Of a stretch of DNA of 39,024 bases, positions 1 to 36,869 are shown piece by piece (positions within the stretch are counted from its first letter, which is position 1; each line of letters begins with the position of its first letter). The position numbers and the translations under genes were made by a program. Under the pieces are notes generated by a model that did not search any database, was not told the origin of the DNA, and saw nothing but the letters and a program-made list of their open reading frames with translations. Source of the stretch: Escherichia phage JSS1; sequence record KX689784. One strand, given 5' to 3'.

Positions 1-430
1 ATTACAGATAGAGACTCAGAGAAGACCAATAGTCCCAACCTATCGTCCTGACCTCCAGCCATAGCCTAGACCTATCGTCAGGACTATGGGTCAACCTTGA
101 GTCAACGACCTGAAGTTTAGACCGAAGGTCTAGGGGCAGGGCCTTTGGTCTGGACTTAAAGAGGGCCTATGGGGAGACTTGAGGTTCTTGAACTGTGAGA
201 TGTGGTCTCAAACTTTTGGTCCAAAACTCATCGAAGACTGTAGGTGGCAGCTACTGTAGGTCAAGGACCGTAGGTCAGGCGACACTAGGATAGACCAATA
301 AGTAGGATGACCCTAAGTGAGCTTCTATTAAGGTGTTACCTAAAGTCCTTGACCTACAGTAGCTAAGGTCAGTAGAGTGAGTCTTTATCCACGTACTGAC
401 CTTAGGTCTTCCGCTCATGAATCGTTACCA
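1..430. repeat. Non-coding terminal region with dispersed short repeats (GACTGTAGGT / CCGTAGGTC / CCTATCGTC types); likely holds the genome terminus and terminal-repeat sequences
   Basis: No ORF with start and RBS. Motif copies at 236-245, 254-261 and 268-276 continue the array at the window end. Position matches the T7 right-end/left-end non-coding regions. Confidence 0.5.
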
Positions 431-438
431 TGATTGCG

Positions 439-597
439 TTAACTACACTGAGAGACCAGAGAACATACGAGAGTCTCGACCCACCCGACCCACTGACTTC
501 CAGCAGTAACGCCAGCAGCAAGTAGAACAGCAGCAAGAAACCTGTATGTAGCTCGATTGGTCGCCAGAGCTTTAAGTACAGCTTTGGTCTTTGCCAT
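439..597 (-). CDS. Small hydrophobic protein (52 aa) at the T7 gene 19.5 position
   Basis: ATG at 597 with AGGAGG about 9 nt upstream, TAA at 439-441. Hydrophobic core FLAAVLLAAGVTAG. Lies downstream of the phiOR-type promoter as gene 19.5 does in T7. Below the 60 aa cutoff of the ORF track. Confidence 0.35.
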   Translation of the reverse strand: MAKTKAVLKALATNRATYRFLAAVLLAAGVTAGSQWVGWVETLVCSLVSQCS

Positions 598-746
598 ATG
601 CTACATACCTCCTGTATCTATGGTCGGTGACTATCTGTATTGGAGGGATTATGATTAATATCACCCTCCTGACTATATGGAGACCTATAGTCCTTACCTA
701 TATGCTAACTTTTAGTCGGCATACTATAAGGTCCCCCCGGTCCCCC

Positions 747-1341: not shown

Positions 1342-3102
1342 TTAGTGGAACGTAACGTATGACCCTAGTCCAAGCTCGTCCATATCGTGAGTTACCCGGA
1401 CCCCATTGTCCCAGAACTCAGTGTGGATGGACTCGAAGCCTTTCCGTGGGTTCTCCATCTGTTCCTCCAGCCACTCCTCAGTGACTTCACGTTCGCCTTT
1501 GTTGGCATCCTTAGCCATAGACTCAACGAAGAACTGTACACCGATAGCCAGCGCATCAAGTCGGTCATCGTGTGCCAAGGCTCCACGTTCACGAGAGATA
1601 CGGGTCATCTGATAGAAGAGAGAGTAGATAGGGTTACGAACACCATCCTTATCAGAGGCTGACTGGTAGTCTTGGACGATAGCAGCAGCGTTAACGATAA
1701 GTCGGTGAGACCCCATGATAGGCTCCAGAACGTCACAGATGCGGAGTTCTTTCTGACCCTTACTCTTCACTTCAGTTACAGCCGCAGGATGGATACGGGC
1801 CGCTACAGGCTTGAATAGCTCAAGGTACATGCCATCACCGAAGTTACCCTCAATGACGTATTCGTTGACCTTCCACTTACGACCAATCTTAGCCAAGGCT
1901 TCCAGCGTAGAGTCTTCATAACCACCACGCATGCCACCAACTTCCATAGCGAAGATGTAGCCGTTTAGCTGGTACAGTACCGCATAGCCAGTTTCATCCT
2001 TACCACGACCACTAGGGTCAATGACCAGAATCTTCTGGGTGTACGAGCTGAAGGCAGAACCTACAGTCTGATACGTGTGGTATGAATCACCCATGAGTCC
2101 AACGTTAGGAACGTCCTCACGCTTGTTCTGAGGGTTTGGCAACCATTGGTAGACCATTGGGCTGGACGCTGGGTCCAAGTCGGCTACGATAAGGTCACGG
2201 AGCTTTAGAGGGTACTTCTCAGCATCACTCAGGTTCGGGTTAAGCATGAACTGTAGAGCGAAGCCAGCCTTGCCATATGACAGCTCACGTTCCTTCAGGT
2301 CCGTATCATCGAAGCGTACTTCGTCGGTCGGACGCCAGTAGAATGACTCAGGGTCCTCTTCCAGCTCTGCCTGAAGCATAGGAGCCAGACGGTCGCCGTA
2401 AGACTGCCAGTCATTCTTATCGCGTGGATAACGAGCGGGCCAGATAGTAGTGGTATACCCACGACCTTCCAGCTCACGATACAGGGTCATCTCGTTCTGA
2501 GGAGTACCCAGATAGATGATTGTACCTCCCGGCTTCAGGATAGCGTCGAACTCTTTCACAAGCTCTGACAGACGGTCTCGTGCGGCCTGAGTCGCTGAGT
2601 TGTTCGGAACCTCTACGTCATCGGCAATCAGGATGTCAGCACGACTACCAGTCAACTGACCAGTGATACCAACAGACTTAACCGAAGGTGAGTGGTCTGG
2701 CTTGGCTGGCCCAACGTCGAAGCTAATAACCGCATCTCGCTGTCCCTGCTTAGGTTTGAGTTCCTGAAGCTGAGGCATGAGGTCGATGATTCGCTTGATG
2801 AATATGGAGTTAGCATCGGCTCGTTCTTTTGAGGCAGACACAATCATGAACTTCAAGTCTGGGTTGTTCCATAGTTTCCAGACCACGAATGCACACGTAA
2901 TGAAGGACTTCCCGATACCACGGAACGCCTGTAGGATGAAACGCCTGTTGTCCCCAGCCGATAGTTTCTTCGCCATGTCAATCTGACAGCGAGTCGGGAC
3001 TGGGAGTGACAGAGCTTTCCATAATACGAACAGGAAGAACACGAAGTCTGCCTTCATACGTGCTGTCATTAGCGCCTGACGCGCCACTAAGTCTTTACTC
3101 AA
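1342..3102 (-). CDS. 19: Terminase large subunit (T7 gp19 homolog, 586 aa)
   Basis: Strong similarity to T7 gp19 ([48 protein letters not shown]), same length as T7. Start codon is TTG at 3102 with AAGGAGGTG 5 nt upstream; it overlaps the gp18.5 TGA. Confidence 0.93.
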
Positions 3103-3548
3103 TGCGTCACCTCCTTATCTTGCTGCAAGGCTCTCACAGTGTCCTGAAGGGCCTTAATCCACTTGTCTCCTTTCACTCCGATGGCGATAAGACGTTTAGC
3201 ATCTCGTTCGTCAAGTTCGGCGTAACCATCAACGATGCATCGACCGTCACTTTGCGTGGCTCCACTCGTAGGTTTGACTCGGATGCGCAGCCGCTTATTG
3301 TCAGACTGAAGGTCAGCAATAATCCTATCAGTGCTGCCTTCCAGCGAGGACATTTCGTCCTGAAACCGTTTGGACACTTTGTTGACTTCAGCTTGGACAG
3401 CAAGCCTTGTATCTTCCGATGCCTTAAGATTCGAGGTGTATTCTGCATTGACCTTAGCCTCCCACTTATTGTTAGCGGTGTGGTAGCCACCAGCAAACAT
3501 CACTGCTGCAAGTAACCACGGAGCCGCTCTCTTTAAAAATTCGAGCAT
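3099..3548 (-). CDS. 18.5: Rz-like i-spanin (T7 gp18.5 homolog, 149 aa)
   Basis: N-terminus [18 protein letters not shown] and [24 protein letters not shown] resemble T7 gp18.5. N-terminal TM segment. GGGAGGG RBS. Confidence 0.85.
3173..3448 (-). CDS. Candidate Rz1-like o-spanin lipoprotein embedded in the +1 frame of gene 18.5
   Basis: Alternate-frame ORF inside 18.5 with a hydrophobic stretch ending in lipobox-like LTISGC and a proline-containing mature part. First ATG at 3448 (GGGAGG upstream) gives an unusually long N-region, so the true start is uncertain. Confidence 0.35.
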   Translation of the reverse strand: MQNTPRILRHRKIQGLLSKLKSTKCPNGFRTKCPRWKAALIGLLLTFSLTISGCASESNLRVEPRKVTVDASLMVTPNLTNEMLNVLSPSE

Positions 3549-3604
3549 AGTTGCCCTCCCGGTTTATCAGATTTTACGTAGAGTCGCCTCCACTAGTTAG
3601 TGTT

Positions 3605-3647
3605 AACCATAAAGGCCACTACATATAGTAATGACCTTGAGTCTAAC
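3605..3647 (-). promoter_or_regulatory. Conserved RNA hairpin, candidate RNase III processing site (T7 R18.5 position)
   Basis: Minus-strand RNA UAGACUCAAGGUCAUUAC-UAUAU-GUAGUGGCCUUUAUGGUU: 11 bp stem with two G-U pairs. Shares flanks with the elements at 25891 and 33823. Confidence 0.5.
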
Positions 3648-3649
3648 AC

Positions 3650-3913
3650 TTATTGAACGCCATACCCGGTGTCATTATCCTCAGTCGCTGAAAGCACCTT
3701 ATCGTACTCTGCGTTCAGGGCCTCCATATCAGCCAGCGTCTTCTCGTCCACAGACACCTTACTTAACACGAAGTTGTGACGAGCAAGCAGCTTCTCAATG
3801 GCGTTGTAGAGCTGAGGTGAACGCTTAGTGTCATCCCGCAAGTCTTGCAGCATGAGTCGAGCACGTTCAGTATCAAGCATCAAGAGGAACTTCTCTAAGT
3901 CCATCTGCGTCAT
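3650..3913 (-). CDS. 18: Terminase small subunit / DNA maturation protein A (T7 gp18 position, 87 aa)
   Basis: ATG at 3913 with AAGGAGGTGG RBS, ATGA overlap with the holin stop. Size and position match T7 gene 18. Confidence 0.7.
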   Translation of the reverse strand: MTQMDLEKFLLMLDTERARLMLQDLRDDTKRSPQLYNAIEKLLARHNFVLSKVSVDEKTLADMEALNAEYDKVLSATEDNDTGYGVQ

Positions 3914-4104
3914 GTTTTACCACCTCCTTTAATCGTTTTGTAGACTAGCACACCAATCTGGACAACGGTGTACGCGATAGCTGCAACGTAGAACCATTCG
4001 TTCAGTGTAAGTCCGAAGAAGAACCGACTGGCACCATCAGCCGCAGCGGTCCCGACTATAGGAGAGGCTTTAAGGACCTCATTCTTGAAGTCTAACTCAA
4101 TCAT
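3910..4104 (-). CDS. 17.5: Class II holin (T7 gp17.5 homolog, 64 aa)
   Basis: FFFGLTLNEWFYVAAIAYTVVQIG is near-identical to the T7 gp17.5 core. GGAGG RBS. Confidence 0.88.
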   Translation of the reverse strand: MIELDFKNEVLKASPIVGTAAADGASRFFFGLTLNEWFYVAAIAYTVVQIGVLVYKTIKGGGKT

Positions 4105-4175
4105 AAAACCTCCAGTTTAAAGCGGGTCGTCCGTGACCCAAAGTTGTTACATACGCTAGTCAGCGTGTAGTTAGT

Positions 4176-6362
4176 CTATATCTCCTCTCCCCTCCACGAG
4201 CAATCGATAATCCCTCCGCGCACCATCTTCCACCGCATGTTGTACGACGCCGAAGGAACAAGCTTTATACCAACACCCAAATTGGGAGCTGTTTCAACAG
4301 ACTTAATCCACGCGTTATTTGAATTATTGTACGTGAATGTTAATTGCTCTGTATTAGTGTAGAAGTCATCAGTACATGTTGTTATTGCTGCTGAAGTATT
4401 CGCAGAATCTGCCCCATTAAAATAATACAGCTCAAAGGCTATGTAGCCGTGGTTCTTCATCCTCGTAGCAAACACACCGCCAGTGTTTCTTGCCGCAATA
4501 CCACCCTGTTTAAATGTAGTGTTACGCTCACCTTGTACGCTCCCGGTATTGATAGTCTGGAATGGTGTGACATCGGCAGAACTGTACTTGTCATTGTACA
4601 ACTGCATAGCTCCACCCATTCTATCCGGGTAAAATGCATACACATCTATGTCATAAGGTTTTTGTCTAGGTGCAGAATTTAATTCTTTCCCTAAAGCATA
4701 CAAATCAGTATCGGTGGTCAATGTGTTGTGTGTGTTTACGATGAGTTGTGTCTCCCACGAGAACGCCGCATACTCACCGTCACCCATGTTAAAAAACTTC
4801 TTAGCGAAAGCTATCTGTTTTGCTTTGTTTTTGAAGTTGTCAGAACCACCATTTGCGTCAGTTGTAAACAATCCAACACAAGGTACAATTCTTGATGTGG
4901 GACATTTATACTTCAGTTCCCCCCACCCAATAACAGCCTGTCGCTTATTCCGGGCATCATCCCAGTCATCATGGTAATACGCGTCTGCAAATATAATATC
5001 ATATCCAGTACCACCATAACCGTTCGGGTGTGTATTTGAGTCAAACCCAAAAATACCATTTTCAGCTATGCATAATGATTTTTCTGTGAATGATTTAAAT
5101 GCCGAGATGCGCGTTTCTTGCACTGCTCTGCTTACTGAATTATTTTGCGGTTCATCAAACAAGTAATAGCCGATAACGCAATCTCTGCTGTCAAGGTCTG
5201 TAGCCGGAGTGTTTGTCTGCCCGTATACTGGCCCACCAAGTATAAGTTTAAGCCCAACAGCTTCTGCGGCGTTACAGGCCTTTTCCATATTCCCACCGTT
5301 TGTCCACGCTTGACCGTAGTGAATTAGCGTATTAAACCCGGCGGTTTTTAGTTGTAACATGTCACAAATATCAAACACGCGATGAACGTATACAGCCTTC
5401 ATCAGTGAATGGTCTACAGGTATTTCACTATCAAGTTCACATGGAACGTTTGGTAGCCTTGTGTATGTGATGGTGGCCTTTCCTGTCAATCTGGCTCCTT
5501 CAGGCCAATCAAAACTCGATAATGTCGTGGCGCCAGTTACGTGTGCGTACCCGTGGTCCGATACGGCTGATAGCACCGCGTCTTTACCATCAGCACCACT
5601 ACCATAAACATACCCGTAATTAGAGATGTCTGCGCGGTCTAAATTTAATCGTTGTTGAACAGTTAATCCGTTATTAGTCCCAACTAAATTGGAACCATTA
5701 TTTGTTTTAAGTGCGCTTCTTAATGACGCGTCCCCAACACTAACCCACGCGCCCAGCCCAATACCACCGGAAGTTTCAGGAGTTGAACCAGCAGGAACGT
5801 TCTTTGGAAGCGTACCATCCCAGCGGTAATAATCACCATCCTCTTCCCATAGCAGGACCTCGTTCCATGTTGTAACGTTGAAGCCTTTCTCGAAGGAGCG
5901 ACGGGTAATATGGCCAATTAGACCAGATGCCTTGATATTCTCAGCGATTCGTCGTGCTTCGTCCTCGCTATCCTTAGCGCTGCCAGCAGAGCTACTAGCA
6001 GCATCGGCATATTCCTTAGCTAAGTCAACCGTTTGGTCTCGACCTTCTTCTGCAATATGGATAGCCTGAAGCTCTGCATTGGTCAGGTCACTAGCTGTCA
6101 ACACTGAGCCATTCCTGAAGTCTACCACTAAGTCAGTTCCAGTCTGACGGTGAATACGAACGATGTCGAAACCTGATTGGTCAATCAACATCTCAATCAT
6201 CGTTGGATTAAGGAATCGGTAATCTCGACCAACTTCCAGTACACGGTTCATGGCAGGGTTAGAGCTATTCACCAGCGTAACAACAACGAACGTTCTGGCT
6301 AGGTAGTCGAACTCAATCCTGTACTGAGTGTTTCCTGAAGGGAATTGTGTAATAGTGGACAT
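4176..6362 (-). CDS. 17: Tail fiber protein (728 aa): T7 gp17-like N-terminal attachment domain plus a long divergent C-terminal receptor-binding, possibly enzymatic, domain
   Basis: N-terminus FDYLARTFVVVTL...LVVDFRNGSVLTASDL...AIHIAEEGRD matches the T7 gp17 N-terminal domain. The remaining ~570 aa are unlike T7 and include a GYYLFDEP motif reminiscent of TIM-barrel glycoside hydrolases. AGGAGG RBS. Confidence 0.85.
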   Translation of the reverse strand: MSTITQFPSGNTQYRIEFDYLARTFVVVTLVNSSNPAMNRVLEVGRDYRFLNPTMIEMLIDQSGFDIVRIHRQTGTDLVVDFRNGSVLTASDLTNAELQAIHIAEEGRDQTVDLAKEYADAASSSAGSAKDSEDEARRIAENIKASGLIGHITRRSFEKGFNVTTWNEVLLWEEDGDYYRWDGTLPKNVPAGSTPETSGGIGLGAWVSVGDASLRSALKTNNGSNLVGTNNGLTVQQRLNLDRADISNYGYVYGSGADGKDAVLSAVSDHGYAHVTGATTLSSFDWPEGARLTGKATITYTRLPNVPCELDSEIPVDHSLMKAVYVHRVFDICDMLQLKTAGFNTLIHYGQAWTNGGNMEKACNAAEAVGLKLILGGPVYGQTNTPATDLDSRDCVIGYYLFDEPQNNSVSRAVQETRISAFKSFTEKSLCIAENGIFGFDSNTHPNGYGGTGYDIIFADAYYHDDWDDARNKRQAVIGWGELKYKCPTSRIVPCVGLFTTDANGGSDNFKNKAKQIAFAKKFFNMGDGEYAAFSWETQLIVNTHNTLTTDTDLYALGKELNSAPRQKPYDIDVYAFYPDRMGGAMQLYNDKYSSADVTPFQTINTGSVQGERNTTFKQGGIAARNTGGVFATRMKNHGYIAFELYYFNGADSANTSAAITTCTDDFYTNTEQLTFTYNNSNNAWIKSVETAPNLGVGIKLVPSASYNMRWKMVRGGIIDCSWRGEEI

Positions 6363-34187: not shown

Positions 34188-36869
34188 TTAAGCGAATGCA
34201 AAGTCTGAAGACAAGATGTCTTCGATATTCAGTTTACCTTTCTTCGGAAGCTCAGGCAGCTTGTCGCGCTGACTCTCATGTAGCTGGTATTCAAACTGCT
34301 CGTAGAAGTCAAGCAGCACATCGTTGTCTCGGTAGGTCTCAACCATCGTCTCACGGACGCCACGGAACAGATATTCAGCGTCAGCCGGGATGGTCCCAAA
34401 GCTATCGTGAATCACTGCGAATGACATCACGCCATACTTGCGGTGCGTGTGGACTACAGTCTTGCGGAGGTGGCTACCATCTTGCGAGTGGACGAAATTC
34501 GGGCTAATGCCTGACTCCTGCTTGTGCTTGTCCAGCTCCTTCTTAGTGCCTTTGTTGACTGTAGGCTGAAGGTTGAATGACCCTAGGAACATAAGGTTCA
34601 GACGAGTAGTATCCTTCTTGCGGTATTCCTGCCAGACAGGGAAACCATCAGGTGTGACCCAGTGTACCGGAAGGCAAGGCTTCAGGGTTTCACCAGTCTT
34701 CTTGTCCTTCACCTCAGCAGCCAGCAGCTTGGCAGCACCTTGCAGCCACTTCATCGCGTCAACCGCAGCAACTACGGTCACACTCACAGCTTCCCAAATC
34801 ATCTTAGCCATGAAGCGAGACGCTTGGCTTGGTTCAGTGAACATAGCGCCAGACCCTGAATCAATCGCTGGCATCACGATATCCTCGTAAACTTGGTCTG
34901 CGAAGCCATACTCTTTCGACCCGTAGGCCAGAGTCATGACCGAACGCTTAGTGACCTTGCGTGACATACCGTAGGTCAGCCACTGACGGGCCAGCTCTCG
35001 TGTCCCCAGCTTGAGACGTTCGGTAATCTCACCAGTTTTCTTGTCCTCGTGAGTTACCATCTCGTTGTCCGTACCGTTAACCAGCAGGACTTTAAGCTCC
35101 TCCTCAATGCGGTCGGACACGATGCGGTAGATGTCTTGGACCTTACCGGATGGCGTCAGGTTTACTGCATGTCCACCGATGTGGTCACGAAGCATCGCGC
35201 TGAAGTGCTGAATCCCAGAGCAGGACCCATCGAACGCTATCGGTAGCGAGCAGGAGTAAGACAGGCCGTGGTGCATTACGCCAGCATACTCGAAGCAGAA
35301 CGCAAGGAAGCAGAACGGAGAGTCTAACCTGCCCCACCACTCAATGCTATCCATCGGGGCTTTGGCAGCAGCCATGATGTTGTCGTGGTTGTCTTCCACC
35401 CACTTGATGCGCTCCTCGAAGGTGACTTTATCGACACCCGCACAGTTTGCACCATGGACCTTCAGCCATTTGAAACCATCAGCACCAATAGGCTTACCGA
35501 CTGCCAGAGTCAGGAGACCCTTCTGCATGTCGTTACCCTGAGGGTTGAACATCGGCACAGCGTAGACGCGACCGCGCCAGTCCATGTTGTATGGGAACCA
35601 GATGGCCTTGAACTGAGAGAACTTATTCGCTTGGTTGACGATAAAGCTCAGTGACAATCTGCGTGACTGTCTGGCCTTCTCGCGGCGATAGATGCCAGCA
35701 GCAGCCTTCTTCCATGCCTTGAGTTCCTCCTCGGTCTCACCCGCATAGTCCTCAGGCTTCAGTGGTTCCATCTGAGGGATGTCATCAATAGGCGTATTGT
35801 TCAGCTTCTCTACCATGTTCACCACGTCCAGCACCTTCTTGTTCACTTTCCAAGGTGTATTCTGGATGATGTTTACTGCCTCGTAGACTTCAGGCATATA
35901 CACGTCTTCGTAACGTGCTACCGCAGACTTAGACCCTAAGCGAATCAGTGGTAATGGTCTGCGACCTTTGGCCCAGTACCCACCACCTACGACACCCGTC
36001 CACGGCTTAGGTGGAACGACGCAAGGCTGATAGACTGGCGCAATACCCGCAAGGCTGAATCCACGTTGTGCCATCTTCTTTACCCAGAAGTCTGACAGGT
36101 GGACCATCTCAACATCAGTCGCTGCATTGCCAGCACCGTAACGCTTAAGCTCAACCAGTTGTGTAGACTGGATGACAATCTCAAGCATCTTGATGCCAAC
36201 GTGTACCGCTTCGGTCGGACTCCAAGTACCCCACGCATCTTCCAGTTGACCTTGCTCCAGCATGGAGGTCTCAACCGCTTGCATGTAGGCTTTCTTATAG
36301 GATGCCCCGGCTCGCTTGTTCAGGTTCTCAGCTATCGCCTTCTTGAAGTGCTCCTGCTCCTTGTCACGAATGCGACCGAAGCGGATTTCATCCTCAAGTG
36401 TACGGCCTATCGCGGAGGCCATCGGTGTAATCGGGATACCTTCAGGCTTGACCAGCTTGGAGAGGATGACCTTCAGTATGATGACCGCAGCAGACTCACA
36501 GGAGATGCGCAGAGAGCGGTCCTTTACGGCCTTCTCTTCAGTGCTCAACATGGTGAACGCTACGCTAGGACGAGAGGTTGACAGCTTCCCGTCTGGGCCT
36601 TCATGCCACTCCTTGACGGCTTGCGCAATCTTAGGGACCAGAGTCTGCATCAAAGGTTTGGCGACCTGATTGTCTGCCAGTTCCCCGCGCTCTGTCTGGC
36701 GCTCAAGGTTCTTGATGAAACGTCGCTCGCCTTCAGTGTATGCCTCATGCTCAAGCTGAAGCTGTTTTACTGCAAGGTCCTGCCCGTAGTGGTCGGCCAG
36801 CAGGTTAAACGGCTCAATTGCGTTCGACACGTCAGAGAAGTCGTGTTTGTCAATGGAGATGACGCTCAT
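34188..36869 (-). CDS. 1: DNA-directed RNA polymerase, single subunit (T7 gp1 homolog, 893 aa)
   Basis: Colinear with T7 RNAP (DFSD...PFN.LADHYG, RFGRIRD, PCVVPPKPWTG..GGGYWA.GRRPL, WFPYNMDWRGRVYA, DGSCSGIQHFSAMLRD, NFVHSQDGSHLRKTV, C-terminal FAFA). The segment between LQPT and HKQESGI, where my recollection places the T7 specificity loop, is diverged. Confidence 0.98.
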   Translation of the reverse strand: MSVISIDKHDFSDVSNAIEPFNLLADHYGQDLAVKQLQLEHEAYTEGERRFIKNLERQTERGELADNQVAKPLMQTLVPKIAQAVKEWHEGPDGKLSTSRPSVAFTMLSTEEKAVKDRSLRISCESAAVIILKVILSKLVKPEGIPITPMASAIGRTLEDEIRFGRIRDKEQEHFKKAIAENLNKRAGASYKKAYMQAVETSMLEQGQLEDAWGTWSPTEAVHVGIKMLEIVIQSTQLVELKRYGAGNAATDVEMVHLSDFWVKKMAQRGFSLAGIAPVYQPCVVPPKPWTGVVGGGYWAKGRRPLPLIRLGSKSAVARYEDVYMPEVYEAVNIIQNTPWKVNKKVLDVVNMVEKLNNTPIDDIPQMEPLKPEDYAGETEEELKAWKKAAAGIYRREKARQSRRLSLSFIVNQANKFSQFKAIWFPYNMDWRGRVYAVPMFNPQGNDMQKGLLTLAVGKPIGADGFKWLKVHGANCAGVDKVTFEERIKWVEDNHDNIMAAAKAPMDSIEWWGRLDSPFCFLAFCFEYAGVMHHGLSYSCSLPIAFDGSCSGIQHFSAMLRDHIGGHAVNLTPSGKVQDIYRIVSDRIEEELKVLLVNGTDNEMVTHEDKKTGEITERLKLGTRELARQWLTYGMSRKVTKRSVMTLAYGSKEYGFADQVYEDIVMPAIDSGSGAMFTEPSQASRFMAKMIWEAVSVTVVAAVDAMKWLQGAAKLLAAEVKDKKTGETLKPCLPVHWVTPDGFPVWQEYRKKDTTRLNLMFLGSFNLQPTVNKGTKKELDKHKQESGISPNFVHSQDGSHLRKTVVHTHRKYGVMSFAVIHDSFGTIPADAEYLFRGVRETMVETYRDNDVLLDFYEQFEYQLHESQRDKLPELPKKGKLNIEDILSSDFAFA

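Follow-up and report, generated by a model that had tools for sequence, protein, structure and literature searches.

Three hairpins in the genome of a K1F-like coliphage are, with high probability, T7-type RNase III processing signals on its minus-strand polycistronic mRNAs. They lie at w3600–3649 (site 1), w25889–25936 (site 2), and w33820–33868 (site 3), all on the minus strand, where w denotes positions in the window, the whole 39,024-nt stretch of Escherichia phage JSS1 (sequence record KX689784) that was analysed. The three sites agree in sequence, structure, strand, and synteny, their helices covary, and they are homologous to T7 sites that are cleaved experimentally.

Genome and coding strand

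Gene names were taken from the record of phage PE3-1 (NC_024379 / KJ748011; Autographiviridae, Studiervirinae, Kayfunavirus), which is 100% identical to the window. The window runs in reverse orientation to NC_024379 and is circularly permuted. All window genes are carried by the minus strand. Since this is the coding strand for every gene, the "minus-strand RNA" of the first-pass annotation of this DNA is the mRNA strand. Phage promoter-like matches were also found on this strand, where there are 11, against about one in all expected by chance.

Three smaller points emerged from the comparison of the two sequences. Window positions 1–741 reflect the circular permutation. A 1-nt indel lies somewhere in w33869–36941 (record 2894–5966), and a stretch of ~70 nt in NC_024379 (roughly 739–811, beside the annotated "concatemeric junction") is missing from the window.

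Sequence and structure of the three hairpins

The 13-mer AGACTCAAGGTCA occurs exactly three times in the window (w3632–3644, w25919–25931, and w33851–33863), always on the minus strand, and it is absent from all 100 dinucleotide-preserving shuffles of the window. The 15-mer 3′ motif TGGCCTTYATGRTTA is likewise found exactly three times. The first-pass annotation had described three minus-strand elements with shared flanks around a 10–12 bp stem, and both parts of this description hold. Its 3′ flank AUGAUUA is present in copies 2 and 3, and copy 1 reads AUGGUUA.

The upper stem of site 1 (AAGGUCAUUAC/GUAGUGGCCUU, 11 bp) pairs w3638–3628 with w3622–3612 below the terminal loop UAUAU (w3627–3623). 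In site 2, the stem AAGGUCAUUC/GAGUGGCCUU has 10 bp (w25925–25916 with w25910–25901) and a terminal loop ACAUC. In site 3, the stem AAGGUCAUGAC/GUCGUGGCCUU has 11–12 bp (w33857–33847 with w33841–33831), a terminal loop UCAAA, and a 3′ internal-loop strand CAUGA. The distal part of the stem differs between the copies with pairing kept, as had been proposed. Pair 9 is U-A, U-A, and G-C in sites 1, 2, and 3, and pair 10 is A-U, C-G, and A-U; both are true double changes. The "several" G-U pairs of the first-pass annotation amount to two per site, at pairs 5 and 8 (both U·G).

Beneath the upper stem, and overlooked in the first-pass annotation, there is a lower helix of 5–7 bp whose sequence varies among the three sites while its pairing is retained. 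In site 1, it is GUGUUA(G)/(U)UAACAC, with the 5′ arm at w3649–3644 (plus G3643) and the 3′ arm at w3605–3600 (preceded by U3606). In site 2, it is GUCUA(G)/(U)UAGAC (w25936–25930 with w25895–25889), and in site 3, it is GGAUUA(G)/(U)UAACC. Between the two helices, the conserved flanks make up an asymmetric internal loop of 4/5 nt, with ACUC on the 5′ side and (U/C)AUG(A/G) on the 3′ side; in site 1, these strands are ACUC at w3642–3639 and UAUGG at w3611–3607. The two-helix layout appears in both the minimum-free-energy and the centroid folds of all three sites, and the loop is 4/5 if the G·U closing pair is counted.

The minus-strand RNAs of sites 1, 2, and 3 fold at −23.4, −22.0, and −22.8 kcal/mol (z = −3.9, −3.5, and −5.4), and 0 of 200 shuffles folded as well. 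The plus-strand RNAs reach only −14.3, −12.0, and −20.4 kcal/mol (z = −2.0, −0.3, and −2.5). The strand specificity claimed for the structure is therefore seen in the folding energies, with z-scores of −3.5 to −5.4 on the minus strand versus −0.3 to −2.5 on the plus strand.

Gene context

Site 1, of the R18.5 type, lies between gp18 and gp18.5 (record 36186–36235). It begins one base past the stop codon of gene 18 (w3652–3650), ahead of gene 18.5. For site 2, of the R4.7 type, the first base is the final G of the gp4.3 stop codon; the site ends 17 nt upstream of the start codon of gene 5, which encodes the DNA polymerase. PE3-1 has no gene 4.7, so site 2 directly precedes gene 5. Site 3, of the R1.1 type, is joined to a phage promoter downstream of gene 1. 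The promoter scan placed this phage RNA polymerase promoter (−17 to +6, core ACTATCACTATAGGA) at w33863–33885 on the minus strand. The lower stem of site 3, GGAUUA(G), starts at its +1 (G33868), and the first transcribed bases are the 5′ arm of this stem. The +13 given earlier for the third copy is thus approximate: its AGACUC flank starts at +6, its upper stem at +12, and its lower stem at +1.

According to the annotation and exact coordinates, all three sites are intergenic except for the first base of site 2, which is within the gp4.3 stop codon. In PE3-1, K1F, CR8, and T7 alike, one site follows gene 18, one precedes gene 5, and one starts at +1 of the promoter that lies downstream of gene 1. 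These equivalent genome positions support the assignment of the sites to T7 R18.5, R4.7, and R1.1 that had been made from the letters alone.

A 111-nt query that covers site 3 matches several Kayfunavirus records in which the underlying features include one or two entries named "hypothetical protein". These calls may be spurious open reading frames over the RNA element, or they may simply be flanking genes as in the PE3-1 record.

Covariance model and validation

A covariance model (model R1; 54 positions, 15 pairs) was trained on sites 1–3 together with seven T7 sites. Run on the window without speed filters, it scored site 1 at 63.3 bits (E = 1.5e-15), site 2 at 62.0 bits, and site 3 at 58.3 bits. 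On the plus strand, no match in the window exceeded the 13.4 bits (E = 0.46) of the site 1 complement. The T3 and phiYeO3-12 genomes were absent from the training, and in the first 7.5 kb of each the model found five of five annotated RNase III stem-loops and nothing else. T7 R6.5, also outside the training set, was found at 41.9 bits. T7 R3.8 and R13, which differ in shape, were missed. A search of the whole window against Rfam (Rfam 15) gave no match at the gathering score or at E ≤ 1.

The pairing was evaluated in three alignments. In alignment A1, a plain MAFFT alignment, 96% of the cells are paired, double changes occur at 8 of the 15 pairs, and 0 of 500 shuffles were as good. In alignment A3 (96 distinct sites), 94.7% of the cells are paired compared with 25–49% when the partners are slid by 1–3 columns, although the fitting of A2 and A3 to the model favours the model structure and inflates these percentages somewhat; A2 gave results similar to those of A3, and A1 gave the same answer. 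Double-change cells in A3 numbered 215 versus 54 in shuffles. Alignment A2, of the orthologues of sites 1 and 2, contains C-G to U-A and A-U to G-C changes, and when the orthologues of site 3 are included there are also whole distal-stem swaps. Compensatory substitutions maintain both helices. The support from compensatory changes that the first-pass annotation had claimed, and for which it had proposed covariance modelling, therefore extends over related phages.

Conservation in related phages

A loose pattern search of IMG/VR (AAGGTC-N12-24-GGCCTTNATG) returned mostly chance matches, with real sites in about 11 of the 80 listed loci. For this reason, we used loci anchored on proteins instead, namely those of gene 18, gene 5, and the RNA polymerase gene. 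A site immediately follows gene 18 in all loci whose protein identity is 90% or more, and orthologues of site 1 stand right after gene 18 in 22 IMG/VR loci whose gp18 is at least 91% identical. Loci with at least 90% identity also have a site directly before gene 5, which in three loci is 400–900 nt further upstream. In 22 loci, and also in phage CR8, an orthologue of site 2 lies upstream of gene 5. Across 80 RNA polymerase loci, all 209 of the 209 model matches fell on the coding strand.

In distant T7-like contigs (L147–L158 and L261–L273; ~50% identity in gp18 or gp5), no match was found at the equivalent positions with the filters off. The sequence family seems confined to the enterobacterial T7/T3/K1F/CR8 lineage.

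Further members and candidate sites in the genome

The family is larger than the three members first described, and the covariance model finds at least five in the genome. The fourth, of the R0.5 type, lies between gp0.35 and gp0.36 at w37832–37888 on the minus strand (31.6 bits, E = 2.4e-6). It has a lower stem GAGUGAUA/UAUCACUU and an upper stem GAGGUCA.CUA/UAG.UGGCCUC, and it folds at −24.5 kcal/mol (z = −4.3). Kayfunavirus relatives also carry it, and their lower stem shows an A-U to G-C change. The fifth, of the R0.3 type, is just upstream of gene 0.3 at w38396–38457 on the minus strand (28 bits, E = 2.7e-5; z = −2.95). Its upper stem is CAGGGUCUUU/AAGGCCCUG and its lower stem is GCGACUA/UAGUCAC with one unpaired base, and it is kept in K1F, CR8, and IMG/VR relatives. 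Both fold into the same two-helix design as sites 1–3. Their scores of 28–32 bits are below those of every annotated T3, phiYeO3-12, or T7 site (35–64 bits).

Two other hairpins differ from the canonical form. At w27981–28027 (minus strand), a 10-bp hairpin GGGAUGGGAC/GUCCUGUCCC begins at the +1 position of a phage promoter, with UUUGUUCGCAUUUAUGAUUA following it; the region has CCCTTTGTTCGCATT in common with the T7 R3.8 region. The covariance model did not detect this candidate, which is probably a non-canonical R3.8-type RNase III site. Its equivalent in phage CR8 has the canonical 5′ flank AGACUCAAGGG. The second candidate, at w13676–13725 (minus strand; −23.2 kcal/mol, z = −3.0), has a 12-bp stem AAGGGCCUAUAG/CUAUAGGCCCUU that encloses the phage promoter before the gene 13 homologue. 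T7 R13 and R6.5 likewise have the promoter inside the hairpin, and this candidate may be a non-canonical site in their style. As its stem encloses the promoter, the hairpin can be formed by read-through transcripts only.

The R1 and R1.3 positions in the window gave no covariance-model match. There was no convincing structure in the region downstream of φ6.5 (z = −0.2) or in the stretch from the gene 1 promoter to gene 1 (z = −1.2), and because of these weak folds we claim no R6.5-type or R1-type site.

Several other features were noted in the window. An ATG with an AAGGAG Shine-Dalgarno sequence is present at w27971 (minus strand), ~128 nt upstream of the RefSeq gp4 start (record 11992), and K1F gp4 is 60 nt longer than the PE3-1 gp4 call. 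PE3-1 gp4 may be annotated too short, or there may be a 4A/4B pair. A perfect phage-type promoter core ACTATCACTATAGGA lies a short way upstream of gene 1, which encodes the RNA polymerase, at w36942–36956 (minus strand), followed by AAGAC-rich short repeats. It is labelled "host RNAP promoter" in the record; a phage promoter before the RNA polymerase gene would imply positive feedback. After gp1.4, a 12-bp G+C-rich hairpin with a U-rich tail (w31859–31886, minus strand) is unannotated in the record and probably corresponds to the T7 early terminator TE.

Proposed processing mechanism

Cleavage, the exact cut position, and the effect on expression are predicted here by analogy with T7. Each site would form a quasi-continuous helix of ~20 bp from the 10–12 bp upper stem, the 4/5-nt internal loop, and the 5–7 bp lower stem, and the E. 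coli RNase III of the host would bind this stacked helix. Because of the internal loop, the enzyme would cut one strand only, on the 3′ side of the loop. Internal loops confine cutting to a single phosphodiester, and the hairpin left at the 3′ end shields the RNA from 3′-5′ exonucleases (PMC1540722).

By analogy with R1.1, the predicted cut is ...GGCCUU(U/C)AU↓G(A/G)UUA..., which would fall at w3609/w3608 in site 1, w25898/w25897 in site 2, and w33828/w33827 in site 3, leaving 3′ ends at w3609, w25898, and w33828. For R1.1 itself, we take the cut to be at T7 nucleotide 5887. The 28-nt R1.1 product described in the literature (PMC1540722) is consistent with this position.

After such a cut, the upstream mRNA would retain the hairpin as a 3′ cap and would be shielded from 3′ exonucleases, and the downstream mRNA would gain a short, defined 5′ leader just before its Shine-Dalgarno sequence. 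A cut at site 2 would give the DNA polymerase gene a 25-nt leader with a GGAGG Shine-Dalgarno sequence before the ATG at w25872. Since site 3 starts at the promoter +1, the transcripts from this promoter and the read-through transcripts from gene 1 would have one common 5′ end after trimming. T7, which has ten of these sites, still grows on hosts without RNase III (PMC6938266), so the fitness contribution of the sites may be small. Rather than being indispensable, they probably adjust mRNA stability and translation.

Over the 96 distinct sites, which come from several genera, the two strands of the internal loop with their flanks (ACUC, UAUGAU) are ~80–99% conserved. This is above the known need of RNase III, an enzyme that reads mostly structure, and might reflect a second ligand or role, for example a loop-recognising phage or host protein, or a function of the ~41-nt 5′ hairpin that would be excised from every site-3 promoter transcript. 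We regard such an additional role as improbable.

Alternative explanations

The hairpins might bind RNase III, or merely fold, and stay uncut, acting as stabilising or translation-modulating elements of the "uncoupled" type known from R1.1 variants. Catalytic antideterminants and bulge-helix-bulge motifs do allow binding and block cleavage (PMC1540722), and site 3 has a C opposite C beside the helix (CCUUC) where R1.1 has C/U. However, in sites 1 and 2 the C/U position, the stem, and the 3′ loop are those of R1.1, which is cleaved efficiently, and T7 R4.7, a listed cleavage site (PMC6938266), has the same C/C variant as site 3. The known determinants of R1.1 are a UA/UG distal box and a middle box with U12:G27 and C13:G26 (PMC1540722). 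Pairs 5–8 of sites 1–3 (U·G, C-G, A-U, U·G) match R1.1 exactly and may represent its middle and distal boxes, the mapping of boxes to columns being partly our own. No G-C pair has been introduced beside the loop, and no G-C antideterminant stands beside the predicted scissile bond in any of the three sites. Uncut hairpins are therefore quite unlikely, and cleavage remains the preferred reading.

Stable hairpins at gene boundaries could also be transcription terminators or pause signals for the host or phage RNA polymerase. An intrinsic terminator consists of a G+C-rich hairpin and a U tract. Sites 1–3 lack this combination, with no run of five or more T after the hairpins and no ATCTGTT class II signal, and the terminator scan reported none of the three. 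The essential DNA polymerase and 18.5/19 genes have no promoter of their own after sites 2 and 1, so these downstream genes depend on read-through. Termination would also give no role to the conserved internal loop and the lower stem. We consider this explanation very improbable compared with RNase III processing.

An equally slight chance is left to repeats with a DNA-level function (recombination or gene-conversion hotspots, origin-associated repeats, or protein-binding sites) with an incidental RNA fold: the exact flanks common to the three copies are unusually long (13 and 15 nt), the copies within PE3-1 are up to 81% identical, slightly above the identity of each to its T7 positional counterpart, and site 3 is near the region of the T3 primary replication origin, but strand symmetry would be expected of a DNA cruciform or of a double-stranded DNA binding site, whereas the model scores 63 bits on the minus strand versus 13 bits on the plus strand, the 209 matches in relatives are all on the coding strand, the conserved U·G pairs become A·C mismatches on the other strand, and covariation keeps RNA pairing and not sequence.

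Implications for annotation

RNase III sites of this type are textbook T7 features. The window hairpins are this K1F-like coliphage's versions of them, a correct and ordinary identification that a T7 specialist would expect. The records of T3 and phiYeO3-12 annotate RNase III sites, whereas those of PE3-1, K1F, and CR8 contain no such features. Our literature search, with the K1F genome paper outside its scope, found no work on RNase III sites or cleavage in PE3-1 or Kayfunavirus. The five canonical and two probable non-canonical predicted sites give likely mature mRNA ends for a phage group used in therapy and engineering, and editing of Kayfunavirus phages should avoid breaking them. The covariance model could be used for annotation across enterobacterial Studiervirinae, and Rfam has no such family. 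The understanding of RNase III or T7 biology is unchanged, and the main value of the result is annotation.

Comparison with T7, T3, and phiYeO3-12

The coordinates of the ten T7 RNase III sites used here are those we take to have been given by Dunn and Studier in 1983. The T7 RefSeq record as served contains no RNase III features, so we relied on these coordinates and checked them by folding; each of the ten showed the expected structure. Sites 1–3 align column for column with T7 R0.5, R1.1, R4.7, and R18.5. When R0.3, R1, and R1.3 are added to this alignment, 11 columns are invariant and 9 are nearly invariant. The primary sequence around the predicted cleavage site, ACUCAAGGUC ... GGCCUUUAUGAUU, is conserved in the three window sites and the seven T7 sites.

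T7 R0.5 is the best overall match and shares the full flanks UAGACUCAAGGUC...GUGGCCUUUAUGAUUA. The identity of sites 1–3 to R0.5 and R1.1 over the whole element is 67–77%, compared with 48–54% to R0.3, and the resemblance of the flank to R0.3 was the weakest part of the first-pass annotation. R0.5 lies in the T7 early region, and PE3-1's own site at that position (w37832–37888) is more diverged than sites 1–3.

T7 R1.1 is built like the window sites, from an upper stem, an internal loop of 4/5 nt that is asymmetric, and a lower stem, and its RNA has been reported to contain an "asymmetric (4 nt/5 nt) internal loop" (PMC6121014). R1.1 and site 2 do not differ in the 10-bp upper stem or in the 3′ loop UAUGAUU. 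The terminal loop of R1.1 is GCAA and differs from all three window loops, and its lower-stem sequence is unlike those of the window sites but covarying. R1.1 lies between φ1.1A and φ1.1B, upstream of gene 1.1, and its lower stem also runs from +1 of the phage promoter downstream of gene 1 (φ1.1A), as in site 3. PE3-1 differs in having an extra small open reading frame between gene 1 and this promoter. Cleavage has been demonstrated for T7 and is predicted for PE3-1.

T7 R4.7 and R18.5 are the positional counterparts of sites 2 and 1, in the stretch before gene 5 and directly after gene 18, before 18.5. R4.7 also has the CCUUCAUGA variant in common with site 3. R18.5 has GGCC/GGUC in the stem, in contrast to GGUC/GGCC in PE3-1. 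In T3, φ1.1 and R1.1 have the same promoter-plus-hairpin layout as site 3. The annotated stem-loops of T3 and phiYeO3-12 (R0.3, R0.5/R0.45, R1, R1.1, and R1.3) are recognised by the same model at 35–62 bits, and they occur on the same strand and at the same intergenic or promoter-proximal positions as the sites described here.
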